Below, one piece after another: positions 4,857 to 30,879 of a stretch of 30,879 nucleotides of DNA (the first letter of the stretch is position 1; each line of letters opens with the position of its first letter). The translations under genes and the position numbers were made by a program. The stretch comes from an uncultured Acidobacteriota bacterium. Its GTDB lineage: Bacteria > Acidobacteriota > UBA6911 > RPQK01 > JAPXNP01. Where the stretch lies: positions 1 through 30,879 of the forward strand of contig CAVZRV010000003.1 in NCBI GenBank assembly GCA_963777605.1. The letters run 5' to 3'. Under the pieces are notes generated by a model that had not been told where the DNA came from, did not search any database, and was given only the letters and a program-made list of their open reading frames with translations.

Positions 4857-5737
4857 AGGTACTGGTATCGGGGCACACCGGGTTGATCGGACGTGTGGTT
4901 TGCCGGACGCTGGCGATGGCGGGACACCGCGTTTACGGCGTCAGCCGAGAGCCTGGTGGGCACGGCGAAGTTGCGGCGGAAGTAATCGCCGACCTCGGGA
5001 CGCCTGAGAGCCTCGAAGAGGTTCTGAGTTTGGATAAGTGTGACGCAGTGATTCATGGTGCCGCGATACTGCACGGAGGAGCATTGTCTCAAGAATTGAC
5101 GACTGTCAATTGCATCGGGACGCAGCATCTGCTGCAGGTTGCCTCGAAGTGGAAGGCGGGCTGCTTTGTCTACCTGTCCAGCATGCCTGTAATTGGAATT
5201 CCCAGGCATCTGCCGATCACCGAGGACCATCCCACGGTGCCAGAGTCGGCCTATCATGCTTCGAAACTCTACGGCGAGCAACTGTGCCGCCTTGTGGACG
5301 ATGGAATTTCCAGGAAGCCGATCCTGAGGCTGACGTCCCCGGTTGGCCCGGGCTTGCCATCAAGTCGAATCTTTCCGGTATTCATCAAGCGGGCACTGGC
5401 TGGAGAGCCTTTGGAATTGAGCGGGCTTGGCACCAGGAGACAGGACTACGTTGATTTGAGGGACATTGCCTCTGCCGTGAGTACGGTTCTTGAAAGTGAT
5501 TGTTCCGGGATTTACAACATCGGCAGGGGACAAAGCGTCTCGAACCGCGAACTCGCAGAAGAAGTCATTACGATCCTGGGATCGTCTTCCCGGATTTGCT
5601 TTTCCGGCGCAGCGGATCCGGATGACGAGCTGGATTGGACTGTCTCGATTGAACGGGCCCGCCGTGACTTGGGTTACGACCCTCGCCACTCACTGGGTGA
5701 TTCGATTCTGTGGAGTGCAGGCCGGCGATGCGGATAG
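4853..5737 (+). CDS. NAD-dependent epimerase/dehydratase (extended SDR)
   Basis: Intact ORF with VLVSGHTGLIG Rossmann motif, YLSS, YHASK (YxxxK), RRQDYVDLRD and IYNIG. Overlaps the upstream stop (GTGA). Confidence 0.92.
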   Translation: MKVLVSGHTGLIGRVVCRTLAMAGHRVYGVSREPGGHGEVAAEVIADLGTPESLEEVLSLDKCDAVIHGAAILHGGALSQELTTVNCIGTQHLLQVASKWKAGCFVYLSSMPVIGIPRHLPITEDHPTVPESAYHASKLYGEQLCRLVDDGISRKPILRLTSPVGPGLPSSRIFPVFIKRALAGEPLELSGLGTRRQDYVDLRDIASAVSTVLESDCSGIYNIGRGQSVSNRELAEEVITILGSSSRICFSGAADPDDELDWTVSIERARRDLGYDPRHSLGDSILWSAGRRCG

Positions 5738-6401
5738 CCCTGATCAGTGACATTCATGCCAACTTCGAAGCCTTGAATGCGCTCCAGGAAGACCTCGTCG
5801 GAGTTGATCGAGTCGTTTGTCTCGGAGACATCATCGGTTATTACTGCCAGGAAATGAGGTGGTCAGCACTCTTCGGGCATGGAACGCGCACTGCATCCTG
5901 GGGAACCACGACTGGTTCCTCGTCAACGGAGTCCCAGGGGAGGCAAACGACAGCGTCCGGTTCGGAATCGAGTTCGCTGATGCGGTGATCGATGCGGATC
6001 ACCGCGCCTGGCTCTCGGGCCTGCCGGTTGCCTGGAGCGGACAGATTGGCTCGCAGTTTTTCAACCTGGTCCACGGGAGTCCATGGAGTCCCCTGCACGA
6101 CTATCTCTACCCGGACAGCCCGAAGCTGGAACAACTGGATTGCTTCGACTACGACGTCATCGCGTTCGGGCAGACGCATCGTCCGTACCTCAGGGACGGG
6201 GCACACCCTCGCCTGATCAACCCGGGTTCGGTCGGCCAGTCCCGGCACAAGCCTAACGTGGCGTGCGCTGTTCTGATGGACACCGGAACCGGGGAGTGCC
6301 TCCCGATCGAACGACCTTATGATCCGAATCACGTGATCAGACTTGCAAGAAGCAGGGGGGCCGGCGCCTGGGTGGAACGACATTTCCGGGGCGGCGTTTA
6401 G
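5728..6401 (+). CDS. Calcineurin-like metallophosphoesterase (YfcE-like)
   Basis: MRIALISDIHAN, CLGDIIGY, ILGNHD, VHGSP, FGQTHRP and INPGSVGQSR motifs. One frameshift near 5850. Confidence 0.88.
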
Positions 6402-6427
6402 GCTTACGGGAGGAGATCCGACTGAAA

Positions 6428-7573
6428 ATGAACGAAGCGATCAAGATTCCCTTCAACAAGCCGACCCTGATCGGTCGCGAGCTCTTCTATATTTCACAGG
6501 TTATTCTCAGCGGCCGGTCCGCCGGTGACGCGGGATTTACCCGGCGCTGCCATACCCTGCTGGAGGAGGCCCTGGGCGTTCCCAGGGTCCTGCTGACTAC
6601 CTCCTGCACTGACGCCCTGGAGATGGCTGCACTCTTGCTGCAGATCGAACCGGGAGACGAAGTCATCGTCCCCTCCTTCACCTTCGTATCGACTGTCAAT
6701 GCCTTCGTCCTGCGAGGGGCCCGCCCCGTCTTTATTGATGTTCGGAAAGACACCCTGAACCTCGACGAATCGCTCCTGGAAGCTGCGATCACGCCCCGCA
6801 CGAAGGCGATCGTCCCGGTTCACTATGCCGGCGTCGGCTGCGAGATGGACGTCATCGGCAAGGTGGCCTCCCGAAACGGAATCCCCGTCGTCGAAGACAA
6901 CGCCCATGGCCTGTTCGGCAAGTACCGGGGGCGCTTTTCGGAACGTTCGGCACGTTTGCGGCCCAGAGTTTTCACGAAACCAAGAATTTCATCTGTGGAG
7001 AAGGCGGCGCCATCCTCATCAACGACCCCGGCTACTGGAGCGGGCCGAAATCGTGCGAGAGAAAGGCACCAATCGGAGCCGTTTCTTTCGGGGAGAAGTG
7101 GACAAGTACAGCTGGGTCGATATCGGGTCGAGTTTTCTTCCCTCCGACATCCTGGCCGCCTTTCTCTACGCCCAACTGCAAGCATGGGAAAAATCAAAGC
7201 CGGCGCAGGTGGATCTGGGAGTACTACCAGGATCACCTGTGCGATTGGGCGGATGAGAACCAGGTCCGCATGCCGGTCGTTCCTGGGTACTGCGAACAGT
7301 CCTACCACATGTTCTACCTGTTGCTTCCGTCGCTCGAAGCGCGGCAGGGATTGATTGAACATCTGCGAGAGCGCGGCATCTTGAGCGTGTTTCACTATTT
7401 GCCGCTGCACCTTTCGGAAATGGGAATCAAGTTTGGAGGCCGTCCGGGAGACTGCCCGGTGACCGAGTCAGTGAGTGATCGGCTGGTCAGAATTCCCTTT
7501 TACAACGACCTGACTGAAAAGGACCTGGCGGAGGTCGTTGAGGCGATTGCCGGTTTCGGGTACTTGCCGGTGA
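6428..7573 (+). CDS. wecE: dTDP-4-amino-4,6-dideoxygalactose transaminase (DegT/DnrJ family)
   Basis: IPFNKP, LLTTSCTDALEMAALLL, PVHYAGVGCEMD, SFHETKN, REKGTNRSRFFRGEVDKYSWVDIGSS, HMFYLLL and VFHYLPLHLS match the WecE/RffA subfamily. The 3' end is approximate: the last frame runs to 7704, but family length suggests about 7570. Confidence 0.9.
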
Positions 7574-7633
7574 TTCGACCCCGCTTGAATCGCTTGGGGA
7601 ATCCCCACGGCCTGCTCCGGGAGAAGCCGCCGA

Positions 7634-8649
7634 GTGAGCGACTCTGGAATCCGGCTGGGTGTGGCGATCGAAGAAACATGGAGTTTCTTCCGGGATCTCT
7701 TTGAGGATTTCCAACGTCACTATGAGGTCACCCAGTTCGAACGCAAGACATTCCAGTTGGCGATCTTCAACACGAGAATCAATCGGTATCGGTTGAATCG
7801 GGATATGGACCGATTCCTTGCCCGCAACGACGTCGTCTTCTTCGAGTGGGCGAGCGGGTTGCTGTCTGCGGCGACCCAGCTTTCGCAGAAGGCGCGAATC
7901 GTGACCCGGTTGCATCGGTATGAAATGTACGAGTGGGTCGAACGGATCAACTGGAACAGGGTTGACCGGGTAATTCTGGTCAGTGAGGCCATGAGGCGCG
8001 ATTCACAGCACGATTTCCCGAATACGCTTCCAAGACCCGGGTGATTATCAGTTCCGTGTCATTAGACCGCTTCCGGCAGGCCGAACGAACCTACCGGGGC
8101 AACCTGGGAGTGCTATGCCAGCTGATTCCGAGAAAGCGTGTCTACGACCTGATCCTGGTGCTTGCCGAGATGCTGAAGGACGGGGACCGGTTCCATCTCC
8201 ACATCGGGGGAGCGGATCATCCTGCTCACGGGGATTACTCGCTGGCGCTGCGCAGGATCGTAGAGCGCCTGGGCATTCAGGACCGGGTTACTTTCTATGG
8301 CAATGTTGAGGACACCCCCTCCTGGCTTGAGAAGATCGACGTGTTCATTTCCCACAGCTATTCGGAAGGGCTCCAGGTGGCCCCGATCAAGGCAATGGCC
8401 ACGGGGTGCTACACTCTCGTCCACGGTTGGAATGGGGCCGAGGAAATGGTACCCGGCGACTGCATCTACCTGACCGGCGATGAACTCAAAGCCAGGCTGA
8501 GGGCCTACGCCGCTGCCTCCGAGGAAGAGAAGAACCGGCAGCAGGCGCGAATGCGGTCGATTGCCTGTGAGCAGTTCGATGCCGAGGAATCGAGGCGGAA
8601 ATTCCGGGAAGTGATTGACGAACTCGCGTCTGGGAGGAAGGCTGGCTGA
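7634..8649 (+). CDS. Glycosyltransferase family 4
   Basis: VVFFEWA, RLHRYEMY, LIPRKRV, VTFYGNVED and DVFISHSYSEGLQVAPIKAMATG (GT4 E-x7-E region). Frameshift near 8000-8040. Confidence 0.85.
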
Positions 8650-11192
8650 TCAGTTGTCCTGGACGACGCGGAGGTTGCGGGGGCGCTCCGGTTCGGAAGG
8701 ACCGCCCGAGTTCTCAGTGGGCACGAGTTTGAACGCCGCATCAGTTGTCAGGTTCTGTATTAAATGGAAAGCCGGCCTTCTCCATCGCTCGTGACAACGG
8801 TCTCTGAAATGGGAACGGCCGGGTTGGCGATGCTGTACGGGTCCCACCGTTCCAGTTTGAAGGACGATCCGGCGGCAAATCCACCGATGGAGACCGTTCC
8901 TGACGCTGCCGGGATGGGAGCCCCGGAAACGACGTTCTTCCAGGTGTGCGACCGATTTTGAACCCAGAGATGAGCCAGTCCATCGCCGGGAGCCTTCTGG
9001 CCGACAACCCGGAACCCCGGGTTGTTCGTGGTGGCGGAAAGGTCCTGGTAGCGACCGTTGTTGAGATGAAGGCCGGAGAGGAAGGCGGCGACGCCGCGGT
9101 AAATCTCGTGCAAACCCTTGACCCCGTCGGGACCAGGCTGGTTCTCCCGATTCTCCGACCACCAGTACAACTCGTAGAGGGCTCCCGGGTCGAGCGATGA
9201 CCAGAGGAAGTTGTGAAGCCAGATACCCTGCCGGTCTTGTGACAGGGCGGGGTTTTCCTTCTGCTCCAGAGAGGAAATCGAGTCCTGCTTCACCACGGAC
9301 AATCGGTTTGCCCGCGAGGTGGGCAGATGAGACGGCCGAATCAGCAGAATGCGCGACGCACTGCTGTAGGCCAGGTCGTAGCCGGCTGCATCGGACTCCA
9401 GGGCGGCGTCCCGAATCCACCCGGTACTGACGTAAGCATGAACGTCCACGTAATCGATGTTGGGATAGCGCGGATTCTCCCAGACCTGCTGGGCGGGCAG
9501 GGAGTGCCAGAAAGAGGTGGTCACCAGGTGACCGTTGGGGTGGTCATAAGTGCACTTCGCGCTGTCGCCGGTTCCAACCGCTCGACCAAAGCCCGGCAAT
9601 GCATGTACTTGCCGAATTCATCCGTCAGAATGTAATGCTGATCGCTGTAGGGGTCCCCTTCATTGAGCAGTTCCCAGGAGTGGATCGAAGTCGAGTACCC
9701 CCAACGGGCCTGAAGGTAGCGCCACCATGCCTGTTGAAGCCAGCGTACCTTGCCGACCTCCCGTCCGCGCCCGAAGAAGAAGGCGTCGTTGTCCTGGGCG
9801 AAGTTCCCGTCGAAATCGATCTTCTTGGAGATGACCTCGCTCTTTTCGAGGATGACCACCTTCAGGTAGACCCCGTTGCGTTCGGCCATCTCAACCAGGC
9901 GGTCGAGGTGATGAGAGTTGTGCTGCTGAAAGTAGTTCTGATGCTCCATCGACGGCTTGTGGAGGATTTCAGGCCCAAAATGCCCGCCTCCCAGGTTTTC
10001 GCGGATGGAAATCGTGTCGATGTAGACCTGGCCCGCGAGGACGTTTTCCAGGGTCAGAAAGAACTTGGGGAGAAAGTTGTTCGTTCCCGAAAACCATTCT
10101 CCGGTGATTGTCCCCCAAGAGGAGGGGGTATTCCCGCCATAGCCGGTGACGGCGGAACCGGTTCCGGCGTCGAATGCCCGGGAGTAGTTCTGCCAGGCGA
10201 CGTCGGTCTTGACGACCAGACCATAGTTTTGATGTCCCGTGTCTCTCGGCCCGGAGACCCCAAATCCCCGGTAGCGGACCTCCACCCGGTAGGTGGTGTT
10301 CGGTTTGACCTCCGTTGGAGTTCCCCAATAGCCGATCACCCGGCAGGCATCGAACCAGCTGGTGTTGCCGTCCGCTTTGTAATCGAGGCGCATCTTGATC
10401 GAGGTTTTCCCCTCGACTTCATCCTCAAAAGGAAGGACACCGGGGCGTGGAACGTAGCCCAGGTACTGATTCCGGATTTCGTAATAGGGCTTCCACTGCG
10501 ATCCGAAAATCGATTCGGGCGTCCACCACATGCGGAGAAACTGGATCCCGTTGGCGGCCATCTTCTGAAAGTCTGCTTCGGTCAGGTCGGCGGCGGCCTG
10601 GTAACCGGGGCCGAGGAAGGGAGATCCATCGTCGAATTCGAAATAGCGGGGATCGTCGGGCTCACTTGGATGAAGCCCGGGGACGAAGCCTCCGCAACCT
10701 CAAATGTTCGTGGCGTGGATTCGACGGTGCCCCCCGCGTCGTGGGCTCTCAATCGAAACGCCCAGGTTCCCGGGCGGTTGGGCAAAAGCGGACTTTCCAG
10801 CTGTATTGACCGGTCGGGTAATACCAGGGCTTCCCGTCGCGGACTTCGTCTCCGAAGGATTCGTGACAGGAAGGCCGGCTGGACGTAGACGGTCGACCAG
10901 TTGTCCGGGCTGAAGAGGCCGTCAACCGAGATCCCCGATGCAGAAGGAAGGCCGATTGGAGGGGCGGAGTCGTAGGGCCACTGGAGATTGTCGGCTACAG
11001 TGGAGCCGACCTGAAAGGTGGCTTCAAATCGCCAAACTTCGATAGCGCTGGTCGGGTGACTGATCGAAGTGATCTCCGGAGATCCCTCGGCAAGGAAAGG
11101 CAAAGCAGGAATGCTGTCAGGACGATTCCAGAGGTTCGATTCCTCCCGGGAGAACCGGTCTGGATGTGGTGCGTCGAACTTCCCTGTTTCAT
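8650..11192 (-). CDS. Secreted DUF5060-like + clan GH-A (GH5-like) glycoside hydrolase with inserted CBM-like domain (frameshifted)
   Basis: GGAG RBS before ATG 11192 and a hydrophobic signal (IVLTAFLLCLSL). DUF5060-like N-terminus (RFEATF...GISVDGLFSPD...QPAF...PGTW). MAANGIQFLRMW, RYLQARWGYSTSIHSWELLNEGD (acid/base), DVHAY and KPIVRGEAG (nucleophile). Ends PERPRNLRVVQDN*. Confidence 0.72.
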
Positions 11193-11226
11193 CGTTCTTT
11201 CTCCGCCGCAACCCGGTGCGGATCAA

Positions 11227-11259
11227 AGCCCAGCGCCCTCGGCGACGGCATCCTGGGCT
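11227..11259. other. Intergenic stem-loop between the two secreted-protein genes
   Basis: AGCCCAG (11227-11233) pairs with CTGGGCT (11253-11259), with inner GCCCTC/GACGGC near-pairing. It lies just after the inferred stop of the upstream gene. No clear U-tract. Confidence 0.45.
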
Positions 11260-13437
11260 CAGTCTCCTCAGTCACACGAAGGTTGCGCGGGCTCGCCGGA
11301 GCCGCGCCGTCGCTCAACTCGAAGTCGAGGTAGTTAATGTCGTAGCCGCCGATCTCGAACTTCAACGTCAAATCATGTTGACCCTTCGAAAGCGAGACTC
11401 CTTCGACCGTAATGTCGGTGAACTGCTCCCAGCCTCCCGTAAAGACCGGATTCAAGGTGGCTGTCGATTTCCCGTCGATCATGACGGTTACCTTCTTGGA
11501 GCTGGTGTTGTTGAGCGAAGCGACTCTTGCCGTAATATCGTACGTGCCGGCGGTCTGGGCGTCGATCACAAAACGTGCTTCGGCGCCGGGAGTGATCCCT
11601 CCGATCTTCAGTCCTCCGCCATTGTCTCCGGTCACGGTGACCTGAAAACTTCCCGCGGAACCGGATACTGTTCGACCTCCAGCCTGCCGGGAAGCGGGAT
11701 TCGGTCGGGAACGATCCGCGATATCCCAGACGGGTAGACTGTCGGAGGAACGGGAAAGGCGGGGCTCCAACGCTCGTGAATGCCAGGTCGCCGGTTTGGG
11801 GCGTGCCGGCACCAGGAGAAAACGAGACGCGGACCGTACAGCTCTGGGATGCGCCGAGGGAAAACGCAAAACCCGGACAGGTCCCCGTCGCTACCGAGAA
11901 TGCAGTTCCGCTCCCGAAGCAAAGGAGTCTCCGGTGACCGTAATGGAGGCATTTCCAATGTTCTTCAGGACCACTTCCGATTGCGGGCGCGGTGCCTTCA
12001 ACAACGCCAAACGGCAGGTAGACGGGAGAAACGGCCAGGGAACCCTTATTCGGTCGGAGTGATTTGCCCCGCCTGCTCGGGGATAATGCCCGAGATGGGT
12101 TGGTCACCGAAACGCCGATCTCAGCTCGAATGCGGTCTTCCATCGGCCACGGCCACAGCGACTGGGCGTCCAGCCCCGTCCGAGCCGTCCTTGAGAACGC
12201 CTTCAACGTATCGGTGCCTCAGGCGGGCCCCTTCGCCCGTCAAGGAAGGGCTGGAACGGTCCCACTGATCCTTGATCACCTCGATGTGGCTTGCCGTCAC
12301 CGAATCCAGTTGGGCCAGGTCGGCCGGCCGGGCGTCGGCAACGTTATAGGCGTGGCCATTGTCGGTGAAAGTCGCCCGGTTAATACGGTTGTTGGTGGCG
12401 GTTTCGCCGAGTCTGCCGAGCGAATATTGACTTCCATTCCCAGTCCGGCATTGCGGGTGGCCAAAACGTCCTGGAGCAGGTTGTCCCTGAATTCACCGCT
12501 GGCCCGTATCGTGAATCCGTTTCTTGAAGGCCACCCCGGATTGGACACAAAACTCGCCGGGCGGCACTGGATGGCTGGGGGCGGATCGATCCCCAGTTGA
12601 AGAGGTTCCCCAGTTGATCGGTCCCGCCGCTGATCGAAATCGACCCCAGGATCTGGTTCCCTTCGACCAGGGTGTTCTGACTCAGGAGTCCGATCGAATC
12701 GAAATGACCGACCGAGATCACGTTCTCAAAGCTGTTGAAAGAGCCGTTGTATACCTCGACTCCGTCTCCCCATGGCCAGTGGTCGTGCCAATTTCTCCCG
12801 TCCCACCTCCGCCAGAATGCAAAGCAGCGCCGGTAAGTGTTGTCGTGCCCGTGGAAGATCTCGAACATCTTTCGGCCGCTTCCGGAGGCGACGGCGTCTT
12901 CGACCAGGTTGTAATTGCCGATGATGCCGATCACGTGACTGTTTCCATTGGTGTTGGCGTTGTAGCCGGAAATCCGTCGGAAAACGTTGTGATTCCCGAG
13001 ATCTGCCAGACCCAATCGTTGCTGTTGGCGGCGACGATTCCCTCGACAACGTAGTAGTCGCCGACCGGGTTTTCACCCTGCTCACCTTCCCAGGTGTCGC
13101 CGATTTTGACCGGGAGAAGATCCCCGGTTCCGTCTCCATTGAGGTCACCGTCGATGAGGACGGCGCCGTCATTTTCGGCTCGGATCGTTATCGGGTTTCC
13201 GGGGCGGCCGTTGCGGCGCTTGGGGTTGAGGGACTGCCGGTAGACGCCATCCAGGAGCACGAGAACGTCTCCCGGGTAGAGCGATTGCCATGCGCGGTTG
13301 AAACTTCCCCAGGGTTGAGAGCGGGTTCCGGGATCGGAGTCCCGCCCGTTCGGCGACATGTAGTAGGTAGCGCCTCGCGATATGGTTGCCGAGAAGCAGA
13401 GAACAATCAGGAACAAATGAAAAAAATGTTTATTCAT
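11259..13437 (-). CDS. Secreted right-handed beta-helix (pectate-lyase-like) protein with Ig-like (choice-of-anchor D/ASH-like) and CBM6-like domains (frameshifted)
   Basis: Signal peptide MNKHFFHLFLIVLCFSATISRGA, TYYMSPNGRDSDPGT..QPW and PGDVLVLLDGVY...GNPITIRAENDG, then N/G-rich beta-helix repeats. SLGASQSCTVRVSFSP is Ig-like. AGTYDITARVAS...TGGWEQF...GQHDLTLKF...DINYLDF is CBM6-like. Ends PASPRNLRV. The stop is inferred at 11259-11261 with one indel; the uncorrected frame ends at 11189. Confidence 0.72.
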
Positions 13438-13605
13438 TGGGCTTTACCTAAGAGTTGCCCCTCTGGTGAGATCAGCCACGATGGTAGCACACCGTTTTTG
13501 ACGAGAGAGTGACCAACAGCACAGCCGGATCGAGGTGGGGGATATCCCCAGTTCCGGCCTCAAGATACAGGGCAGCCGGCGAAAGACCTGCCGGAGGACA
13601 AGATC

Positions 13606-16933: not shown

Positions 16934-19900
16934 ATGTTTAATCGGATGACTACTGAGTACCCAAGGGACGGTCGTCTCGGCGCCCGTTCGAAGAACAGGC
17001 AGGGCGAACTCCCGACGCCGTTGCCGTGGTTTTTGAGAACTGTCGCCTTACCTACCGGGAACTGAATGACCGGTCGAACCGGGTAGCTCACCACCTGAGG
17101 CGGCTGGGGGTTGGGCGCGACCTGCTTGTCGGGGTTTGCCTGGAACGTTCGCTGGATCTGATCGTTGGGTTGCTGGGAGTTGTAAAGGCGGGAGGGCGCT
17201 TACCTCCCTCTCGACCCCGAATACCCGGGGCAGCGGCTCGAGTGGATGGTCCGGGACGGAGGTTCAAGTGGATCCTGACTCGACAGTCTGAGGCGGGAAC
17301 AGTTGCCGGCCTGGGGGCCGAGTTGGTGCTGATCGATGACTTGGAGTAGTTCTCGAAAGATACCGGCAATCCCAAGCCGGTCAATCAGGCTACCGACCTG
17401 GCTTATGTGATGTACACCTCGGGGTCAACCGGGGAGCCCAAGGGGGTGAATGTCGTCCACAGAGGGGTAGTCCGACTTGTTAAGGGCCCAAACTACGCCA
17501 GTTTCGAGACCGACGACGTCTTCCTGCAGCTGGCGCCGGCCGGATTTGACGCCTCCACGCTGGAGATCTGGGGATGCCTTCTGAACGGAGGACGCCTGGT
17601 GGTCATGAAGCCGGGGCAGCCGACACTGAGAGAACTGGGTGAGGCAATCCGGTCCGCGGGCGTCACCACTCTCTGGCTGACGGCGAGCTTGTTTCACCTG
17701 ATGGTCGAGGAGGAGTTGGAGAGCCTCGCCGTTGTCCGGCAGTTGTTGGCCGGGGGGGACGTCTTGTCTCCCACTCACGTCAGAATGGTGTTAAAGAAGT
17801 GCCCCGGAGTGACGGTCATTAACGGTTATGGGCCGACAGAGAACACGACGTTCACCTGCTGCCACCCGATGAAGTCGGTTGGGATCTTCGGGGAGGGGGC
17901 GGTCCCCATTGGGCAGCCGATTTCGAATACGTCGGTCTACCTCCTCGACGGGGCAGGCCAACCGGTGCCGGCGGGGGTTATCGGCGAACTCTATGCCGGC
18001 GGTGACGGGCTGGCCCGGGGCTACTGGGACCGGCCGGCCCTGACGGCGGATCGTTTTGTGCCGGATCCCTTCAGCGGGAACGGGTACCTGTACCGTACGG
18101 GCGACCTGGCTCGCCGCCGCGACGACGGGGTCATCGAGTTCCTGGGAAGGCGTGACCACCAGGTCAAGATCCGGGGCTACCGGGTCGAACTGGGAGAGAT
18201 CGAGGCTGCCCTGCGCTCTCTCGACGGAGTCAGAGACGCCGTCGTGGTTGCCCGTGACAATGGACCCGAACAGGAAAAGAGCTTGGTCGCATATGTTGTC
18301 GGGAACACTGAGCCCGATGGCAGTACCGCCGAAATCCGAAGTTTCTTGGAGGCGCGACTGCCGGCGTATATGGTCCCGACGATGATCCGTTCGTTGGAAT
18401 CTCTTCCGCTGACCGCGACCGGCAAAGTAGACCGGAACCTGCTCGCTCGCCAGCCGATTTCCGCGGCGCCTCCCACGCCCGGCGTAGCCGCCCCTCTGTC
18501 GGACATTGCTGCCGCGCTCGGGGACATCTGGGCAAGCGCTGCTTCGACCTCCCCCGGGTCAGCCCGAGCGACAACTTTCTCGAGTTGGGGGGGCACTCCT
18601 TGCTGGCCGTCCGGCTGATCGCCCGGATTGCTGACGCTTTTGGCGTGGATTTGCCGCTCCGGATGGTCTTCGAGAATCCGGCCCTGGCGGCCCAGGCCCA
18701 ATTGATCGAGAAGAACCTTCCTCATGCCCGGCCGCGGACCCGGCTGCTTCGGCACTTCGGGAGCCGGCAGGTGCCGGTTTCCTTCGGCCAGGAACAGCTC
18801 TGGTTTCTGGAGGAGCTGGGGGTGGAGGCGGGGACGTACAACGTGGTGAGCGGGGTACGCCTGAGGGGGGAATTGAAGGAGGAGGCGCTGGAGCGGGCAC
18901 TGGGGGAGATGGTGCGCCGGCACGAGGTGCTGCGGACGGTCTACCGGTGGGACGGGGAGCGGGTGGTGAAGGGAGTCCGGGAAGGGTTGAAGAACGAACA
19001 GAGCCGGGAGGACCTGAGGGAGCGGAGCCGGGAAGAGCGGGCAGGGCGGGTGCGGGGAGCGAGGCGTGGAAGCGGAGACGCGAGGCTACGACCTGGAACG
19101 GGACCCGATGTTGCGGGTGTGGCTGTTGCGGTTGGGCAAGGCGGAATGGGCGATGTGGGTGAGCCTGCATCACATTGCGACGGACGGCTGGTCGTTGGGG
19201 GTTTGGTGGGAGGAGCTGAGCGCGCTGTACGGGGCGTACTGCGAGGGCCGGGATTCGGAACTCGAAGAGCCGGAGGTGCAGTATGGAGATTACGCGATCT
19301 GGCAGCGGGAGCGGCTGACGGAATCGGAACTGGACGGGCAGCTGGAGTACTGGAAGGGGGAGCTGGCTGGGGTGCCGCTGCTGGAGTTGGCGACGGACCG
19401 GCGCAGGCCTGGGTGCAGAGCTACCGGGGCGGGCGATGTGAGTTTGAGCTGGGAGCGGAAGTGGCGAGCGGAGTGAGGGAGTTGAGCCGGGAGGAAGGGG
19501 CGACGGCGTACATGACGCTCCTGGCGGGGTTTGTGACGCTGTTGTACCGGTACACGGGGCAGGAGGATTTTGGGGTGGGGATGCCGGTGGCGAACCGGGA
19601 GCGGCCGGAAGTGGAAGGGCTGATCGGGTTTTTTGTGAACACGTTGGTGGTGCGGACAAAGCTGGGAGGAGAGGAAAGTTTTCGGGAGTTGGTGGGCGCG
19701 GTGAAGGAGAAGGTGCTGGCGGCGCAAGAGCAGAAGAGGTGCCGTTCGAGAAGGTGGTGGAGGTACTGAAGCCGGAGCGGGACCTGAGTCGGAGTCCGCT
19801 GTTCCAGGTGGTGTTTGCGCAGCAGGAGCGCGGGGATTGGGGGCTGTCAGGACTGGAAGGGGAGCGGCTGGAAGGAGAGGGGGAACGGGTCCGGTATGAG

Positions 19901-22900
19901 GTGGAGTTTCATGTATGGGAAGGAGAGGCGGGGATCCGGGGAGAGATTCTGTAAACCGGGACCTGTTTAAGGGAGAGACGGTAAAGGGGATGGCGGGACA
20001 CTACGGAAGGCTGGTGGAAGAGGCGGTGAAGGCCCCCGGGCTCCCCTCTCCCGGATTCCCCTGGCCAATCGGAACGACACCAGTTGCTGGCCGAGTGGAG
20101 CCCAGAACTCCCAGCTCGTTCCGAGGAGATCTGTATCAAGCAAGGCTTCGAGCAGCAGGTGGAACGAACCCCGGAAGCTGTTGCCGTTGTTTTCCGGGAT
20201 CGTCAACTGACCTACCGCGAGCTGAAGCCCGGGCGAACCGGCTGGCCCATCGTTTGCGAGCGCGCGGAGTGGGTCGAGGCGTCCTGGTCGGAGTCTGTCT
20301 GGAACGTTCACTCGAACTCGTCGAAGCGTTGCTGGAAGTCGTGAAAGCAGGGGGTGCTGATCTGCCCTCGATCTGAGAAATCCCCGCGAGCGTATCCAAT
20401 GGATGATGACTGATGCACTCGGACGCCAGGATTCGCGCATCGTCCTGGCGGACGAGGCATCGAAGCACCTGGTTGAAGCCGGGGGTTTCGAGGTGATCAT
20501 GATCGACGAGTTGTCGCCGGCGGACGAAATGGAGGTGACAACAAATCCGGTGTTGCCCGCGGGCGAGGGCGGGTCGGACCGGCTGGCTTACGTGATCTAC
20601 ACCTCGGGAATCACCGGGCATCCCAAAGGGGTCCTCGTGCCCGACCAAAACGTGATTCGGCTGCTCACGGCGACCGATCCGCTGTTCGGCTTCCGGAAGG
20701 CGCAGGAAATCAGCAGGAAGTCTGGACGCTGTTTCACAGCCCGGCCTTCGACTTCTCGGTCTGGGAATTTTGGGGTGCGCTCCTGCACGGCGACCGACTG
20801 GTCGTTGTCCCGCCGGAGACGGTGTTGTCGCCTCGCGATTTCTACAGCCTGCTGATTGACGAGAATGTGACGGTCCTGAACCAGACTCCGTCGGCTTTTC
20901 GGCAGTTAATCCGAGGACTCCGCCCGGTCCGCGCGGGAGCGGAGCTTCTGAACTGCGATATGTCATCTTCGGCGGTGAAATGCTCGACTTCACCCTACTG
21001 CGGGAGTGGACACGACACCATCCCCTCGGGAATCCGACTCTGGTGAACATGTACGGAATCACCGAGACGACCGTTCACGTCACGCACCACGAGGTCTCGC
21101 CGGAGGAACTTGACCTGGGAATGAGCCTGATCGGTCGGCCTCTTCCAGGATGGGCTGTCTGCCTGCTCGATTCCCATCAGGAGCCCGTTCCCATTGGAGT
21201 CTTCGGGGAGATTTACGTTGGTGGCTTGGGGTTGGCCAGGGGCTACCTGGGGCGACCCGACCTGACCGGATTCCGCTTCGTTTCCAGTTCATTCGAGAGT
21301 GAACCGCTGAAACGTCTCTATCGGAGCGGAGACCAGGCCCGGTGGCGCCGAGATGGCACTCTTGAATTCGGTGGGCGGATCGACAGCCAGATCAAGGTCC
21401 GGGGATTCCGGATCGAGCCGGCCGAGGTCGAGGCGGCAATCCGGCTCCACCGTCCGTGGCTGACGTTGCCGTGATCGATCGCGTCGAGGTGGAGACGGGT
21501 GAGTCGAGAATGGTCGCATACCTGGTCACCCGTGCGGGCCAGGCTGTCACCCCAGATGGCATGCGAACTTTTCTCTCGACGCGTCTTCCCGATTACATGA
21601 TTCCAGCGGCGTTTGGGAATTGCAGGCCCTCCCCTCACCGTCAACGGGAAACTGGATCGATCGGCCTTACCCGACCGGGGTTTGAGCGCCCGCAGCTGGC
21701 AACCCGCTACGCTGAGCCGCGGGATGTACTCGAGCGCACCGTTGCCAGGACATGGGAAGAAGTCCTGGGCCTCGAGCGGGTCGGCCTCTACGACAACTTC
21801 TTCGATTTGGGGGCCACTCCCTGAAGGCGGTACAGTTGGCGACTCGCCTCTCCGAGGCGACGGGCGTTTCAGTACCGGTCCGAAAGTTATTTGAGTCCCA
21901 GACAGTTTTCGCCCTGGCGGCCGCTCGGCCGAGCCCGAAGCCGTCACCCTGCCGTCGGTTGATCAGGGGATCCGTCAACGGTCGACTCAAGGTGCCCTTC
22001 CCCTTTCCTTTGGCCAGGAACGACTCTGGTTTCTGGAGGAGCTGGGGGTGGAGGCGGGGACGTACAACGTGGTGAGCGGGGTGCGCTTGAGGGGGGAATT
22101 GAAGGAGGAGGCGCTGGAGCGGGCACTGGGGGAGATGGTGCGCCGGCACGAGGTGCTGCGGACGGTCTACCGGTGGGACGGGGAGCGGGTGGTGCAGGAA
22201 GTCCGGGAAGGGTCGAAGTACGAACTGAGCCGGGAGGACCTGAGGGAGCGGAGCCGGGAAAAGCGGGCAGGGCGGGTGCGGGAGCGAGGCGTGGAAGCGG
22301 AGACGCGAGGCTACGACCTGGAACGGGACCCGATGTTGCGGGTGTGGCTGTTGCGGTTGGGCAAGGCGGAATGGGCGATGTGGGTGAGCCTGCATCACAT
22401 TGCGACGGACGGCTGGTCGTTGGGGGTTTGGTGGGAGGAGCTGAGCGCGCTGTACGGGGCGTACTGCGAGGGCCGGGATTCGGAACTCGAAGAGCCGGAG
22501 GTGCAGTATGGAGATTACGCGATCTGGCAGCGGGAGCGGCTGACGGAATCGGAACTGGACGGGCAGCTGGAGTACTGGAAGGGGGAGCTGGCTGGGGTGC
22601 CGCTGCTGGAGTTGGCGACGGACCGGCGCAGGCCTGCGGTGCAGAGCTACCGGGGCGGGCGATGTGAGTTTGAGCTGGGAGCGGAAGTGGCGAGCGGAGT
22701 GAGGGAGTTGAGCCGGGAGGAAGGGGCGACGGCGTACATGACGCTCCTGGCGGGGTTTGTGACGCTGTTGTACCGGTACACGGGGCAGGAGGATTTTGGG
22801 GTGGGGATGCCGGTGGCGAACCGGGAGCGGCCGGAAGTGGAAGGGCTGATCGGGTTTTTTGTGAACACGTTGGTGGTGCGGACAAAGCTGGGAGGAGAGG

Positions 22901-23843
22901 AAAGTTTTCGGGAGTTGGTGGGCGCGGTGAAGGAGAAGGTGCTGGCGGCGCAAGAGCATGAAGAGGTGCCGTTCGAGAAGGTGGTGGAGGTACTGAAGCC
23001 GGAGCGGGACCTGAGTCGGAGTCCGCTGTTCCAGGTGGTGTTTGCGCAGCAGGAGCGCGGGGATTGGGGGCTGTCAGGACTGGAAGGGGAGCGGCTGGAA
23101 GGAGAGGGGGAACGGGTCCGGTATGAGGTGGAGTTTCATGTATGGGAAGGAGAGGCGGGGATCCGGGGAGAGATTCTGTACAACCGGGACCTGTTTGAGG
23201 AAGAGACGGTGAAGGGGATGGCGGGACACTACGGGAGGCTGGTGGGAGAGGCTGTGAAGGCCCCCGAGATTCCCCTCTCCCGGATTCTCCTGATGGGCCC
23301 GGGTGCGGCGTTCTTGTCGGGAGGGCTTCCCGGAAGCAGAGAGAGTATCAATCCAGGAGATGCAATCGGTGTTCTCTCCAGGACTGGAGATCGCACGGCG
23401 GACCCACAGCCGGAGCAAGTGGTTGCTGAGCACTCCGTTCGGGGAGGCCGGCAACGCGTGGAGCCCCGAAGTGACCTGGAACGCCTAATGGTGGACATTT
23501 GGGCGGAGACCCTGGGGCTTGAGTCCTTGGGGTTGAGGAGGATTTCTTCGCGCTGGGGGGGCATTGGCTCCTGGCGTTGAAGCTGATGGCCCGTGTTCGT
23601 GAGGCGCTGGGTTTTGAAATCCCGCTCCGCCGGCTTTTTGAGAATCCGACGGTGGCCGACCTTGCGGAGGCCCTGGTCCGTGAGGAACCTCGCCCGGGTC
23701 ACGCGGCCGAGGTCGCTGCGTTGTACGCGCGGGTTGCCGCGCTTTCAGAAGACGAGGCAGCCGAACAGCTGAGACAACTGAATTCTGAAAGGAGCCGCGG
23801 TGAAGTCGCGTCCGCCGGCTGCGAGCAAGTGGCAGTTGTTTGA
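16934..23843 (+). CDS. Non-ribosomal peptide synthetase 1: A-T-C-A-T-C-T (many indels)
   Basis: A1 ~16934-18450 ([38 protein letters not shown]). T1 LGGHSLL ~18590. C1 HHIATDGWS ~19170. A2 ~20140-21670 ([34 protein letters not shown]). T2 LGGHSLK ~21810. C2 HHIATDGWS ~22395. T3 LGGHWLL 23553-23573. Ends in a docking-like helix [10 protein letters not shown]. Confidence 0.9.
18778..20060 (+). repeat. Condensation-domain repeat, copy 1 (near-identical to 22004-23290)
   Basis: Line-by-line comparison shows long identical stretches. Differences are mostly single-base indels plus a few substitutions near the ends. Confidence 0.92.
22004..23290 (+). repeat. Condensation-domain repeat, copy 2
   Basis: Direct repeat of 18778-20060. 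This copy is an open frame from 22048. Confidence 0.92.
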
Positions 23844-26800
23844 GGCACTGGCCTCGAAGGAGGGACTGTCTGCGCGAAGCTCGATCAGCCCCCGCGGTGG
23901 TTCGGGACCCTTGCCGCTTTCGTTCTCACAGGAACGGATGTGGTTCCTGGAGCAATTTGGCCTGCACGGGCACTTTCACATTGTTGAGTCGGTCCGCATT
24001 CGAGGCCGGCTGGACGAGGGGCTTCTCTCCAGGAGCCTCGAGGAAGTCGTCAGACGACACCAGGTCCTTCGGACCCGGTACTTCTCCCACGAGGGGACTC
24101 CGTCCCAGGAGGTCATGTCGGAGTGGGCGTTCGAGGTGCCTCGAGTCGATCTCGAAGGCCTCTCTCCCGAAGAGCAGAAAGAACGGGCGCGCACCTGGGC
24201 GGCGGAAGAGAGCGTGCGGCCATTCGACCTGCAGACGGAACCGACTTTTCGAGCCCGGCTGCTGAAGTTTTCGGCAGAGGAATACGTGCTCCTTCTGGTG
24301 ATGCATCACATCTCCTCGGACGGTTGGTCGCTGAGTGTCTTTTGGCGGGAGGTCTCCGAAATTTACACCTCACTGGAGTCGGGTGGACCGGCCGATGTTC
24401 TGGTTCCACCCCCGATTCAGTACAGTGACTTTGCGATCTGGCAGCGGGATTGGCTCCAGGGCGAAGAACTGGAACGTCACCTCGCCTTCTGGCGGGAGGA
24501 ACTCTCCGGAGTTGCCCGTTCTCCAACTCCCGTCGGACCGCCTGCGCCCGGCGGTTCAGGGTCACCGGGGTGCAATCGTGCGGATGCGGGTTCCCGAGGA
24601 TTTAACGGGACGCCTGAAGGAATTGAGCCGGGACCAGGGAGCGACGCTGTTCATGACGATGATGGCTGCGCTTCAAGTTCTTCTCAGCCGGGTAAGCGGC
24701 CAGGAAGATTTTGGGATTGGGGTGCCGGTGCAACCGGGATCGTGAGGAGATCGAGAACCTGGTCGGTTTCTTTGTGAACAGCCTGGTGTTGAGAGCCGAT
24801 CTCAGCGGGCGACCGACGTTCGTCCAGTTGTTGGAGAGGGTCCGCAACGTCACTCTTCGGGCCCTGGCAACCAGGATCTGCCGTTCGAGAAAGTCCTGGC
24901 GGAAGTTCACCCGGAACGGGATCTCAGCCGGACTCCCCTGTTCCAGGTTGCCTTCAACATGCTGTTTTCTCCCGACTATCAGCCGCGGCTCTGTGAAGTT
25001 GGAGGTGGAGAGACTGCCCCTGGAGCAGGAGGAATGCCAATTTTGACTTCACGTTCTACGTTGCCGACGCCGGGCCTGAGATCGAGATTTCCGTTGTTTT
25101 CAACGCCGACCTGTTCTCCCGGGAGCGGATGGAGGAGTTACTGGGCCAGTACTGCCACCTGCTGGAGGATATCGAACGGGACCCGGGTCACGACGTGGGG
25201 GACTATTCACTGGTTACACCAACCTTCCGATCGCTCCTGCCCGACCCCCAGGCCGAGTTGGAGGACGACTGGAAGGGCCCGGTCTTCAGCCCCTTGAGCC
25301 GGTGGGCCGCCGAGGAGCCGGCCCGGATCATCGTCTCCGACCCGAAGAAGGACTGGACTTGCCGGGGAACTGGAAGTCGCCTCCAACCGGCTGGCGCGCT
25401 ACCTGCTTAATCGTGGAGTGGCCAGGGGTGAAGGTGATCAGCATATGGGCATCGCGAAGTGCAGCGCTGGTCTGGGCCGTCCTCGGGATCCTGAAAGCGG
25501 GAGCGGCGTTCCTGATCCTCGATCCGGCCTACCCTCCCGAGCGCCTGGCCGAGTACGTGCGCCAGGCTCGACCGAAAGGACTGCTCTCGATTTCCGACGC
25601 CGAACTTCCGGGTGAAGGGCGTGTAGACCTTGTTCCCTGGGTGGACACGATCCCGACCGGTACAGGATCGGCACTGGGTATCGGAGAAGCCCTGGATAGC
25701 CAGCCGGATACTCTCCCGGAAGTCGTGCTGACGGCCGGTGACCTTGCATACGCGACCTTCACGTCAGGGTCTACAGGCCGGCCGAAAGGGGTACGAGGGC
25801 TTCACGGTTCTCTCTCCCACTTCCTCCCCTGGATGACGGAATCATTTGGTTTGCGGGCGGAAGATCGTTTCAGCATGCTCTCGGGACTCGCTTTTGACCC
25901 CCTTCAGCGGGAGATATTCACTCCGCTCTGGGTGGGCGCCCGGATCCGTATTCCCGGTCCGGACCTGCTTGACGGTATCGGGCGGCTGGCAGACTGGCTG
26001 ATCCGCGATGCGATTACGCCTGCCCACGCGATCCGGCGATGAGCCAGATCCTGATGGAGGGGATTGACGAGTCGCGCAGCCTGGACGGCCTCCGCGATGT
26101 CGATTTCGTCGGGGACCGCCTGACCGGCGATCTCGTGAATCGCATGCGGCAGTTCGCCTCCTCGGCCACTTTCGTCAATTCCTATGGCTCTACTGAGACC
26201 CAGAGAGCGGTTGGCATCTTCGAGATTCCCCCGGGACAGGGCCTCTACCAGGAGAGCGAGGTCCTGCCAGTTGGGCGCGGCATACCCGATGTTCAGCTCC
26301 TGGTTCTGAACCCGTGTGGAGCGCTCGCCGGGATGGGTGAGCTGGGGGAGATCCTGGTCAGGAGCCCCCACATCGCCGGGGGCTACATTGGAAGTCCTCT
26401 CGACCGCGAAGCCGCCTTTATAACGAACCCGCTTCGAGACCGGGACGCTGACCCCGTCTACCGGACGGGAGACCTGGGCCGGTACCTGCCCGACGGTACG
26501 GTGCTTTTCCTCGGCGGAATGACGATCAGCTCAAGATCCGTGGAATCCGGGTCGAGCCGGCCGAGATTTCTGCGGTCATTGCCCGCCATCGCGACGTGCG
26601 CTCGAGTGTCGTCCTCGGGGAGCCAGGCAGCGACGGGCAGCCGATCCTGGTGGCGTATGCAGTCGTCGAACCGGGCCGGAGCCTGGACACCGGCGAGCTT
26701 CGCCGGCACGTCGGACGATTTCTTCCCCGCGCCCTGGTTCCGTCTGCATTCACCTTCCTCGAACGAATCCCGCTTACTCCGCGGGGAAAGATCGACCGGG

Positions 26801-28007
26801 CCGCCCTTGCAGAGGAGCGGGTGAGACAGTCCAGAAGCGAACGATCCGGATCGGAAGCCCATTCCGATCTCGAGAAGAAAGTCTTGCGGATCTGGCAGGA
26901 ACTTCTCGGAGCCGGCTCGTCGGGGACCCGGGACAACTTTTTTGACTGCGGAGGCCATTCGTTGCTCGCGGTCCGGTTCCTGTACAGGGTTGAGTCGGAA
27001 TTGGGGGTGAATCTCCCGCTGGCACTGTTCTTCCAGAATCCGACCGTTGAAGGGGTGGCCCAGGCAATCGAACGCCAGAAGGGACTGGCCCGCTGGCCAG
27101 CCCTGGTTTCAATCCGGCCGTCCGGATGGAGACCGCCCTTCTTTTGTATTCATCCGTTCTGCGGCGACGTGGTGGGATTCGGGATCTGGACGAAGTACCT
27201 GGATGATGAACAGCCGTTCTATGGACTGAGAGCCCGAGGCCTGGATGGGATTGGAAGTCCCAGCGATCGAATCGAAGATATGGCGGCCGAGTACATCGAA
27301 GCGATCCAGGGAATCCAGCCGACCGGCCCCTACTATCTGGGTGGATATGGGCCGGGTTCGGTGACTGCGTTCGAGATGGCTCGCCAACTGCGGGTCGCAG
27401 GTGAGGAGGTCGCGTTGACGGCGGTCATCAACTGCGCGGCTCCGGGATCGAGCTACCACTCGATCGACTGGAGTCCCCGCTTCCCTCTCCGTCTTCTCCG
27501 TAACCTTCCTTATTGGATCGCCGAGCTGGCGCGGCTGGGCTACGCCAAGTCCGTTTTCCGGTTTCACGAGCTCCTCCGTCGAGAGGTCCTGGTGTCGCGG
27601 ATGGCTCGCAGCCTGCGGCTGGTCACCCTCCTCCAGTCTGCCAAGTTGAAACTCAAGGCCAAGGCACGCCAGGTCATCGACGAACATGACCTGGCCCGTC
27701 TCGACAGCGGGGGAGTCCCGACCACCCACGAAATGCGGCAGTCACGAGTTGCCCGGGCCCACCGCGATGCCCTTGCCGGGTATTTGCCGCCGGGCAGCTA
27801 CCCTGGAGATTTGGTGGTTTTCCGAACGAAGCGCCAGCCTCTGCTCTGCTCCTTCGCCCCCGACCTCGGCTGGAGTGAAATCGTCACCGGCCGAATCCAG
27901 GTCATCGAAATCCCGGGTTCCACCCGGGCCCTCCTCAAAGAACCCTACGCCCGCTCGTTCGCCAAAGAGTGGGGAGGGTCCTCCAGCAGATCCAATCCCG
28001 GTCGTAA
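23800..28007 (+). CDS. Non-ribosomal peptide synthetase 2: C-A-T-TE-like (many indels)
   Basis: [12 protein letters not shown] and HHISSDGWS (C). [43 protein letters not shown] and GKIDR (A). [12 protein letters not shown] (T). PPFFCIHP...IEDMAAEY...GPYYLGGY (TE fold). The stop is inferred at TAA 28005-28007 after an indel; the uncorrected frame runs to 28254. Confidence 0.88.
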
Positions 28008-28633
28008 CCCGGCCGGCCCCTCCGGATCGTATCTCCGTTGCCGATTGTCGAGAATTCTGACACAGGGGTTTACTTGCGTCCACGTATCGTTCGGGCTGGA
28101 CAACCACAGATTGCAGTGCTCTTGTCTGCCCGATTCCCGGGTGAAGTCCGAAAGGCGCGTTGCCCGCCCGGCCCTTGAGCGGTCCGACTGGCCAATGACT
28201 TTTCCCCAGAATTTGGCCAATAAAATTCCCCACCTTGATTACGATCTATTCTGAATCCGAGTCAAAGAGATTTCCCGGGTTTGGTTTTCCTTTCTGCTCG
28301 GGGGCCAGCTAGGAGTCTGCGCGGCAGGAACCTCCGCGAACAAGTACGCGAGTGGTAATGAGCGCTTCTCCGGAAGCTCAATAACCAATACCAGTGCTGC
28401 CGAAAGCCGAATCCATCAGGGTTCGAAGCCAGATCCAGGTCTGGCGGTTGAGTTGATCAGGCGTCGCGCCCATTGCATTCGCGACCGAAACTTCCGGCCT
28501 CGGTCCGTCCTTTCCACGCTTCGCGCAACAGTTTCCCCGCTGAATACTTCCGCCGATCGGACGGCCCTGCCTATCTGTAACCGTTAGAGCCAGGACTCGA
28601 CACTCCGAGAGCCTTGAAGCCTCGCGAATTCTC

Positions 28634-28673
28634 AAAAGGAAACGGCCGGCTACCCTGGAGAGCAACCGGCCGT
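28634..28673 (-). terminator. Rho-independent terminator of the PEP-CTERM gene
   Basis: Minus strand ACGGCCGGTTGC-TCTCCAGG-GTAGCCGGCCGT followed by TTCCTTTT, about 40 nt after the corrected stop. Confidence 0.8.
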
Positions 28674-28713
28674 GATCATCAGCAGTTCTGATAGGCCAGA
28701 GAGGCGACTGCGA

Positions 28714-29330
28714 CTAGATTCGGCGTTTCGGCCAAGGCCCAGCAGTCCAAAACCCAAGAAAAACAGAGTGCCCGGCTCCGGGACGCGAAGAAGAAAAGCA
28801 TCACTGTCACTCTTCACCACATAACCACCGTCAATACTGCGAACATGGATTCCAATCGGCATCGCTCCGCTTGCGATCGCTGCAGCTACATCCGCAGGAG
28901 TATGGTTTCCAGCCAAGTAAAAGAAGAACTTCGCCGACTCTCCTGGCGAGAGACCTGCCGAAGCGTCGCTGCCCACATCCGCTTCAGGGCTCCAGTAAGC
29001 ATCAGACGGGTTGCCACCCGGCAGATGTCCTGGACTGGCAGAGTCGCTCCAACCAGTTTGGAGTGGGGTCACGTAGCCATTCAGTAATCCCAGAGAGTCA
29101 TGCCAGTAAATCTCTGTAAGGTTGGAAGCCACAGGTCCAAGATTGGAGAACAAGAAACCGATCTGTGTCCCTCCTGCCTCACTTGAGATCGTCAACTTGA
29201 ACTGGGATCCATCGAGTGTTGTGTTTCCGTCAAGACTGGATGAGTTGAAATAGAACACCGGATCCGCCATTGCTGGCGTCAGGCAAAGAAACAACAGGGC
29301 AATTAAGGCGAGAGAGGATTTTCTATTCAT
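28714..29330 (-). CDS. PEP-CTERM sorting domain-containing secreted protein
   Basis: Signal peptide MNRKSSLALIALLFLCLTPAMA, a Ser/Gly/Thr-rich body, then VPEPGTLFFLGFGLLGLG. Adding one A to the AAA run gives the typical basic tail RKRRI* (stop 28714-28716). GGAG RBS before ATG 29330. Confidence 0.9.
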
Positions 29331-29364
29331 AAGAAGACAAACTCCGTTTTCTCCTTTAACTTGC

Positions 29365-29381
29365 AGCATGATCCATGCCAG
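29365..29381 (-). promoter_or_regulatory. Sigma-54 (-24/-12) promoter of the PEP-CTERM gene
   Basis: Minus strand CTGGCATGGATCATGCT has GG-N10-GC with exact spacing against consensus TGGCACG-N4-TTGC, about 35 nt upstream of the ATG. Confidence 0.8.
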
Positions 29382-30078: not shown

Positions 30079-30879
30079 CTACCCAATTTCCGCCAGGGTG
30101 GTCTTTGCTTCGGCTACGCCGTCGAAGTCCTGCGACATCTCGAGCGCCTTGCGCAGGGACTGCTTGGCGTGGATGCTGTCGCCCTTCTTGAAATAGGCCA
30201 TGCCGAGGCGGTAGTAGTGCTGGGCCTGCGGTTCACCCTGGTTGACGGAGAACTCGTACTGGTCGACGGCGAGCGTGTAATTGCCCATCTTGTAGTAGAT
30301 GTAGCCGAGCGTGTCGGCATAATGCGCGTTCTGGCCGTCGATCTCGTCGGGCCCGCTGGGCCAGACTCAAGGCTTCGGTCAGGCTCTCTCCCCGGCTCGC
30401 GAGCAGCCAGGCCAGGTTATTGGCGGCCGCTCCGTAGCCAGGACTGTCTTCGGGAAAGAAATCCAGGCTCTTGCGATAAAACTGAACGGCCTCGGCACCG
30501 TCGCCCGAGGCATCGAGGTAGTAAGCCTTGAGGAGATAGGCCGGAGCGAACTGGTTGTTCTTGGCGATCAGTTCGTCCACTTCCTTGATCGCTTCAGGAA
30601 GCTTCTTCTGGGCCATCATCAGATCGCCCAGCAACAGGTAGGGTTGGTAGTCGTCGGGACTGACGGCGACCGCCTCCCGAAGTTCTTTCTCCGCCTGGGC
30701 GTAATCCCCCTTGGCCATGTAAACCCGGCCCTTCAACACGAGATAGATCTGTTTCTTGTCCGACTTGGTGGAGAGCTGGTCCAGCTCCCGAATGGCTTCG
30801 TCGTAGCGTTTCTCCTGAACCAGAACGGCCACCATGTCGTTCAGTGCATCCGTAACGTCGGGGTACTTGGCGAGCGCGC
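30079..30879 (-). CDS. TPR-repeat protein, PrsT-like (PEP-CTERM system), 3' end only
   Basis: Tandem TPR helices, AANNLAWLLA...ALSLAQRA, ADTLGYIYYKMG, YRLGMAYFKKGD and the C-terminal FDGVAEAKTTL. Adjacent to a PEP-CTERM gene. One frameshift near 30340. Confidence 0.82.

Follow-up and report, generated by a model that had tools for sequence, protein, structure and literature searches.

The NRPS in the stretch of DNA analysed here (the window, 30,879 nucleotides) ends in a thioesterase-fold domain, which we call TE*, that carries neither the Ser/Cys nucleophile nor the catalytic His of type I thioesterases (TEs). This state is real and inherited and does not stem from read errors. Judged from its conservation, TE* is probably a pseudo-TE that was retained to serve some other function where the chain exits, of the type described as 'TE0', with the many frame breaks around it being assembly noise. 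As a variant of a known oddity, TE* is well defined and can be tested; the assembly in which it lies is error-rich.

TE* has a thioesterase fold without nucleophile and histidine

Matches to AMP-binding_C, PP-binding, and Thioesterase follow one another in a single frame (26452-28254, plus strand), the last of them (PF00975) with an E-value of 6.9e-20 and 72.7 bits against a cut-off of 26.4. TE* is thereby located where a type I TE is expected, directly after the last carrier domain. Its features, all on the plus strand, are the following, with residues numbered within TE* and with the clade described further below.

27085..28007, plus strand: terminal TE-fold domain without Ser/Cys and His (TE*), recognized by PF00975, a model with pLDDT 89, TEs as best fold matches, and membership of the His-less clade
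27187..27189, plus strand: Trp35, invariant in the clade and Leu in 95% of the other relatives
27343..27357, plus strand: nucleophile elbow G-Y-G-P-G, with the Gly codon GGG (27349-27351) at the Ser/Cys site
27430..27432, plus strand: Asn at the Asp 'position I' after strand beta6 (VINCAAP), Asn in 21/21 clade members
27445..27780, plus strand: lid of 112 aa with net charge +11, five predicted helices, and lower model confidence
27826..27855, plus strand: post-beta7 loop with the clade motif T-x-R-Q-P-L-x-C-S-F (T248 in 21/21, R250 in 20/21, C255 in 20/21)
27922..27924, plus strand: Thr at the catalytic His site after strand beta8 (IPGSTRAL), His absent in 21/21 clade members
27970..27978, plus strand: frame change, with a relatives-like C-terminal end in another frame and the stop TAA at 28005-28007

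An AlphaFold2 model of 27085-27975, based on an alignment of 56 sequences (mean pLDDT 89.2, pTM 0.86), displays the strand and helix order of alpha/beta hydrolases together with a long helical lid. Its top Foldseek matches in the PDB are NRPS, PKS, and FAS thioesterases (E 3e-19 to 1e-12), among them 7crn (E 3e-19), the AB3403 termination module 4zxh, the human FAS TE 2px6, the Pks13 TE, EntF, Vlm2, and NocB. NCBIfam contains no specific family for TE*; its only hits are weak, partial ones to the TE portions of Pks13 and EntF. With type I TEs (PF00975; 7crn, AB3403 4zxh, human FAS TE 2px6, EntF), TE* shares the fold and the place after the carrier as well as the framework motifs, namely the HP loop, the GxxxG shape of the elbow, W263, and the PG before the His site. 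Unlike them, it has no Ser/Cys nucleophile and no His, and an Asn occupies the Asp site after beta6.

The residues were matched by aligning the clade profile to solved chains. The Gly of TE* aligns to the Ser of 7crn (GWSLGS; GWALGS in the mutant entry 7dxo) and of the human FAS TE (GYSYGA), and its Asn to the Asp of 7crn (NLDQ). The Thr aligns to the His of the FAS TE (GDHRTLL); a second, weak stretch also places it on that of 7crn (CSHPHMM). We take the FAS TE residues matched by the Gly and the Thr to be the catalytic residues of that enzyme. Two hallmarks of type I TEs are consequently missing from TE*: the Ser/Cys nucleophile within GxS/CxG, which reads GYGPG, and the His after beta8, where the sequence is PGSTRAL. 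The post-beta7 loop does contain an acidic residue (APDLGW; most clade members carry D/E two residues earlier), but in a domain that has no His a triad cannot form despite this residue.

A preceding sequence-only reading had reported the same three sites, and the in-frame translation of 26596-28254 reproduces its residues and coordinates exactly. Its assignment of a TE fold devoid of nucleophile and His is borne out by the alignment to solved TEs, with both copies of the domain and the 20 nearest TE domains agreeing on the His loss. Its end coordinate, 28007, is likewise sound: the frame change near 27970-27978, which lies in the last helix of TE* and is present in both copies, is followed by a relatives-like end in another frame that reaches the stop at 28005-28007. 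What does not hold is the use of the Asn at the usual Asp position as, by itself, a sign of inactivity, since 21 related TEs that retain Cys and His (CNH type) also carry Asn there. SulM and ObiF have their catalytic Asp after strand beta7 (PMC11298585). The relatives of TE* frequently rely on Cys, and Asn is common at their beta6 site; SulM and ObiF are active enzymes that retain Cys and His, whereas TE* has neither. What counts is therefore the loss of the nucleophile and the His, and not that of the Asp.

The substituted residues are inherited

The window (positions 1-30879) is the whole of contig C3 (30,879 bases), one of the 53 contigs of a 6.73-Mb genome, and over its full length it repeats the inside of the 333-kb contig C35 (291105-260208, minus strand) at 97.2% identity. 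The domain can thus be read a second time, at C35:263118-264008. The locus is visibly error-rich, and the three substitutions might accordingly be suspected to be sequencing or assembly errors in a normal TE. We regard this explanation as scarcely credible, because the two independently assembled copies agree in Gly, Asn, and Thr and no gap event between the contigs falls within 27085-28007. The Gly codons differ only synonymously, being GGG in the window and GGT in C35, and the Asn (AAC) and Thr (ACC) codons are the same in both. Moreover, the closest relatives, which come from other datasets, read alike. The nearest of them, P0152, is an intact C-A-T-TE protein of 1407 aa that is colinear with the entire last NRPS module of the window; its TE domain is 65-67% identical to TE* and has the same Gly, Asn, and Thr. 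This combination recurs in P0003, P0153, P0154, and P0155, and P0156 and P0008 have Ala, Asn, and Thr at the three sites.

Since the second copy agrees, with a synonymous Gly codon, and the 20 closest TE domains share the state, the Gly/Asn/Thr state of TE* is real and inherited and is no read error. The sequence-only reading had judged the GGG codon hard to explain as an error, and the Gly found in C35 and in relatives agrees with this. It had also considered that the His might have been lost by a homopolymer slip; this assumption is unneeded, as PGST is also present in P0152, P0003, P0153-P0156, and P0008. The comparison with homologs that it had called for agrees with its view, all of the 20 closest homologues (36-67% identity) being devoid of His and carrying Asn.

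TE* belongs to a His-less clade with invariant residues of its own

For the phylogeny, 1.84 billion representative proteins were searched exhaustively with HMMER, and longer proteins also by a word-based method. The 285 TE domain instances taken from 258 proteins gave 286 rows together with the query. The tree (FastTree, LG+gamma, midpoint rooted) contains 280 of these rows; six were dropped for covering less than 75% of the kept columns. The query is placed in a clade of 21 members (support 0.952), which consists of the query and the 20 nearest TE domains, all from other datasets and at 36-67% identity; because similarity to the query guided the choice of homologues, the clade is represented here by a sample, in its extent as in its composition. 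No member has a His at the catalytic position (T, N, M, P, or I in 21/21), and the beta6 Asp site is Asn without exception (21/21). The elbow is more variable: Cys and Ser are both absent in 13/21 (nine Gly, two Ala, one Asp, one Glu), and Cys is present in the remaining 8/21. The ten nearest domains form an inner clade that includes no nucleophile-bearing member (support 0.982). Loss of His and Asp throughout and a subsequently drifting elbow are what is expected once the classical site has stopped working.

The clade is additionally marked by residues that are fixed within it and rare outside. W35 occurs in all 21 members and in 0% of the 265 other rows, of which 95% have Leu, and T248 (21/21), R250 (20/21), C255, F257, S279, and A289 behave in the same way. 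The query carries every clade mark, that is, the absent His, Asn at beta6, W35, T248, R250, C255, F257, and S279. In four intact C-A-T-TE* proteins, pairwise identity amounts to 49-60% for TE*, 41-53% for the C domain, and 31-56% for the A domain; TE* is as conserved as the domains that adjoin it. By these sequence comparisons, the clade evidently is under purifying selection, with W35, N116, T248, and R250 together with C255, F257, and S279 as its own invariant residues. The His-less TE is always protein-terminal and follows C-A-T, A-T, C-T, or, once, KS-AT-ACP, so that both NRPS and PKS contexts are represented.

A changed chemistry that makes use of the clade's own polar residues is the main rival to the pseudo-TE reading. 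TE* might still be an enzyme, either by direct transfer (aminolysis or transesterification) that proceeds without a covalent intermediate, or by means of Cys255 or the basal elbow Cys, with Thr248, Arg250, Ser279, and Asn116 binding the acceptor or stabilizing the transition state. The elbow Cys in 8/21 members and the conserved polar residues T248, R250, C255, and S279, which flank the old active site, make such a chemistry conceivable. The invariant polar residues specific to the clade cluster after beta7 and before the old His site, and the post-beta7 loop is the place of the catalytic Asp in SulM and ObiF (PMC11298585). Constant location at the release position past the last carrier and conservation equal to that of the neighbouring C and A domains would also suit an enzyme, and R*-type reductase-like domains are an earlier case of degenerate release domains that took up a new chemistry (PMC8949500). 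Against it, the elbow varies freely within the clade (C, G, A, D, E), as expected of a site that does not act. Further, no general base is conserved in the place of the His, and C255 with its PxxCSF motif is not an invention of the clade, because the 21 CNH-type relatives, whose Cys and His are normal, share this loop. Taken together, we consider a changed chemistry to be a serious possibility, well short of probable, and favour the conserved pseudo-TE.

The lid offered another route to a new function. The sequence-only reading had seen it as long and basic and had proposed that the domain docks to the membrane; on this proposal the basic, hydrophobic lid would anchor the synthetase, at a locus that makes and exports polysaccharide at the envelope. 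The lid is indeed long and basic (112 aa, net charge +11), but this is not special to the clade, since lids outside the clade are similar, with a median of 92 aa and +7 over 260 rows. Long and basic lids being a property of the whole branch, membrane docking is left with no specific support, and an anchor is a very improbable explanation of TE*.

The His-less clade is rare in the genomes searched

In the data covered the clade is rare: it has no member in 60 relative genomes or in 400 sampled genomes of the phylum. The former yielded no TE* match at E<=1e-30, and the six matches obtained from the latter at E<=1e-55 are all ordinary Ser-Asp-His TEs. A search of genome and metagenome contigs with the clade alignment returned mostly ordinary TEs; among the matches listed, only L084, the contig of P0154, and L043, which is of a CNN type, are clade-like. 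At both of these flanked loci, a gene for an Sfp-type 4'-phosphopantetheinyl transferase directly adjoins the gene of the His-less TE (L084:4647-5426 and L043:10819-11649), which may be ordinary cluster content.

A different arrangement is seen in seven loci labelled Acidobacteriota (L027, L030, L049, L066, L077, L078, and L079), where a TE-like domain combines an elbow Cys with a Pro in place of the His. The beta6 site is Asp in four of them and an alignment gap in L030, L077, and L078. A second TE-like match with Ser and Asp lies 0.1-1.6 kb downstream (2.4 kb in L049), and these second matches end before the His position.

Proposed role at the chain exit

Having neither nucleophile nor base, TE* could not form an acyl-enzyme and hence could not perform classical chain release. 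We propose that TE* continues to accept the loaded carrier arm and keeps the PCP-bound thioester in place or presents it, most likely as a pseudoenzyme of the 'TE0' type, and that another enzyme or an incoming nucleophile would take the product off the carrier. The only precedent that we found for an inactive TE after a carrier is the TE0 of PacP (A-T-TE0) from pacidamycin biosynthesis. This TE0 is regarded as inactive for want of the typical triad, and the aminoacyl group moves on to another carrier (PMC8748450). Both domains are TE-like, follow a carrier, and are devoid of a typical triad, and TE* falls under the definition of a TE0 as worded there. PacP is a single module of the loading type, whereas TE* ends a multi-module line, and the likeness is one of description.

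A broader analogy is provided by the X domain of glycopeptide NRPSs, which recruits P450s, and by the R* domain, which performs a Dieckmann cyclization (PMC8949500, PMC10510592). Both are degenerate copies of NRPS catalytic domains that were kept for a new role, as we propose for TE*; their fold and ancestry differ from those of TE*, and the analogy is one of principle only. Our literature search found no account of a clade of conserved, catalytically dead terminal TEs; subscription papers lay mostly outside the search, which makes this weak evidence of absence.

The sequence-only reading had concluded that the domain is a pseudo-TE and that an acceptor must therefore take over the product. 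The former stands as a conserved state, and membrane docking and acceptor transfer are unproven additions to it. The word 'must' goes too far, because neither a partner nor an acceptor nor a release enzyme acting in trans came to light, and the window showed no candidate for such an enzyme.

For genome-mining tools, a terminal TE is the release step, from which a hydrolysed or cyclized product is predicted. With a conserved clade of dead terminal TEs, predictions of this kind would be wrong for the clusters concerned, and the clade points to another release or hand-over step. It also supplies defined residues (W35, T248, R250, and C255) and intact relatives that can be expressed, for instance the 1407-aa C-A-T-TE* protein.

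The NRPS is assembled twice with many small indels

The NRPS that TE* terminates is spread over many frame pieces. Its parts, and the genes that follow it, are listed here.

about 16957..28007, plus strand: NRPS with the order A-T-C-A-T-C-T-C-A-T-TE*, from Pfam matches on stop-to-stop frames, in many frame pieces
23782..25407, plus strand: C domain of the last module, split over frames (PF00668 model positions 5-205 at 23782-24774 and 384-452 at 24997-25407)
25080..26790, plus strand: A domain of the last module including AMP-binding_C, split over frames (PF00501, PF13193)
26878..27069, plus strand: carrier (PCP) with the phosphopantetheine site GGHSL (PF00550, E 1.8e-15)
28650-29369 and 30233-30877, minus strand: PEP-CTERM protein and TPR protein (PrsT-like, weak)

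Between the window and C35:260208-291105 there are 737 mismatches and 137 gap events. Every one of the latter comprises 1-4 bases, 114 being single bases, and larger deletions are absent. The NRPS stretch accounts for 78 of the gap events, and the sites at which the two copies break mostly differ. Reading through this stretch requires at least 17 frame changes in the window and at least 21 in C35; the frame-switch totals of 57 and 42 take in ordinary gene boundaries. In the window, non-NRPS genes recognized by Pfam are split as well. Indels of 1-2 bases break the DegT gene (6323-7701), the metallophosphoesterase gene (5701-6398), and the GT4 gene (7589-8646). Homopolymer errors are ruled out as the cause of the indels, as just 32 of the 114 one-base indels are in runs of at least three. 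Within the Pfam-confirmed NRPS frames, the base differences between the copies number 57, 51, and 112 at codon positions 1, 2, and 3 (chi-square p 2e-7), a skew that fits two alleles under purifying selection.

These observations bear on the possibility that the NRPS of this organism has become a decaying pseudogene together with its TE, which would then be idle here. The non-NRPS neighbours in C35 are mostly unbroken and in single frames, but the NRPS there needs at least 21 frame changes, a distribution that also fits decay of the NRPS; the at least 17 changes in the window and the frame change shared by both copies in the last helix of the TE point in the same direction. On the other hand, all 137 length differences are of 1-4 bases, with no larger deletion among them, and the copies mostly break at different places, yet their differences favour third codon positions. 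Moreover, the last module, in which the C domain stretch is colinear with that of P0152, matches this intact relative over its whole length, and the Gly/Asn/Thr state is older than this genome. The bin contamination of 5.68% likewise speaks against decay, as does the fact that the window, a whole small contig, repeats an internal part of a large one, such duplication being a setting where polishing fails. On balance, a decaying NRPS is improbable. The frame breaks are most likely assembly noise in a twice-assembled stretch and not gene decay, and the window has the appearance of a haplotig or of a stretch that was assembled twice and left unpolished. We therefore read the locus as two alleles, or a double assembly, of what would be a working gene overlaid by unpolished small indel errors. 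Gene calls in a locus that was assembled twice with so many small indel errors are not trustworthy.

Two further features of the NRPS concern its modules. Over 1290 bases, the condensation stretches at 18778-20063 and 22004-23292 share 98% identity, which represents either a recent internal duplication or a source of the assembly trouble. The module at 21895-23843 consists of C and carrier with no A domain between them and would therefore need loading in trans.

The NRPS lies in an exopolysaccharide locus

The first 16.9 kb of the window encode polysaccharide functions, as Pfam matches across the plus-strand frames show. Transport is represented by parts of ABC and ABC-2 transporters and two Wza-like Poly_export proteins; the enzymes comprise GT2, GT4, ATP-grasp, epimerase/dehydratase, metallophosphoesterase, DegT aminotransferase, and GHMP kinase. 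Upstream in C35 follow further glycosyltransferases, an epimerase, and a Bac_transf sugar transferase, in single frames throughout. Directly past the NRPS, a PEP-CTERM protein and a TPR protein are encoded, the latter weakly like PrsT of the XrtA/PEP-CTERM system, which places the NRPS in a locus of the exosortase type for exopolysaccharide.

These surroundings invite a bolder proposal. The His-less clade might be a new off-loading domain of NRPSs and PKSs that passes the chain from the carrier to a bound acceptor with no acyl-enzyme step. Here, an amino sugar or the polysaccharide under construction could serve as the acceptor, which would give a peptide- or acyl-decorated exopolysaccharide. 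The proposal draws on the nearby genes, namely the DegT aminotransferase, epimerases, glycosyltransferases, GHMP kinase, ABC-2 and Wza-like exporters, PEP-CTERM, and the PrsT-like TPR protein, and we put it forward as speculative, with small odds of being correct.

The polysaccharide cluster also contains a large open frame (window about 9300-13500) with no Pfam or NCBIfam match. Its C35 version is a single frame of 1032 aa (L003:16667-19762, minus strand), and a 4.5-kb copy with 90% identity is present on contig C23 (10371-14918).
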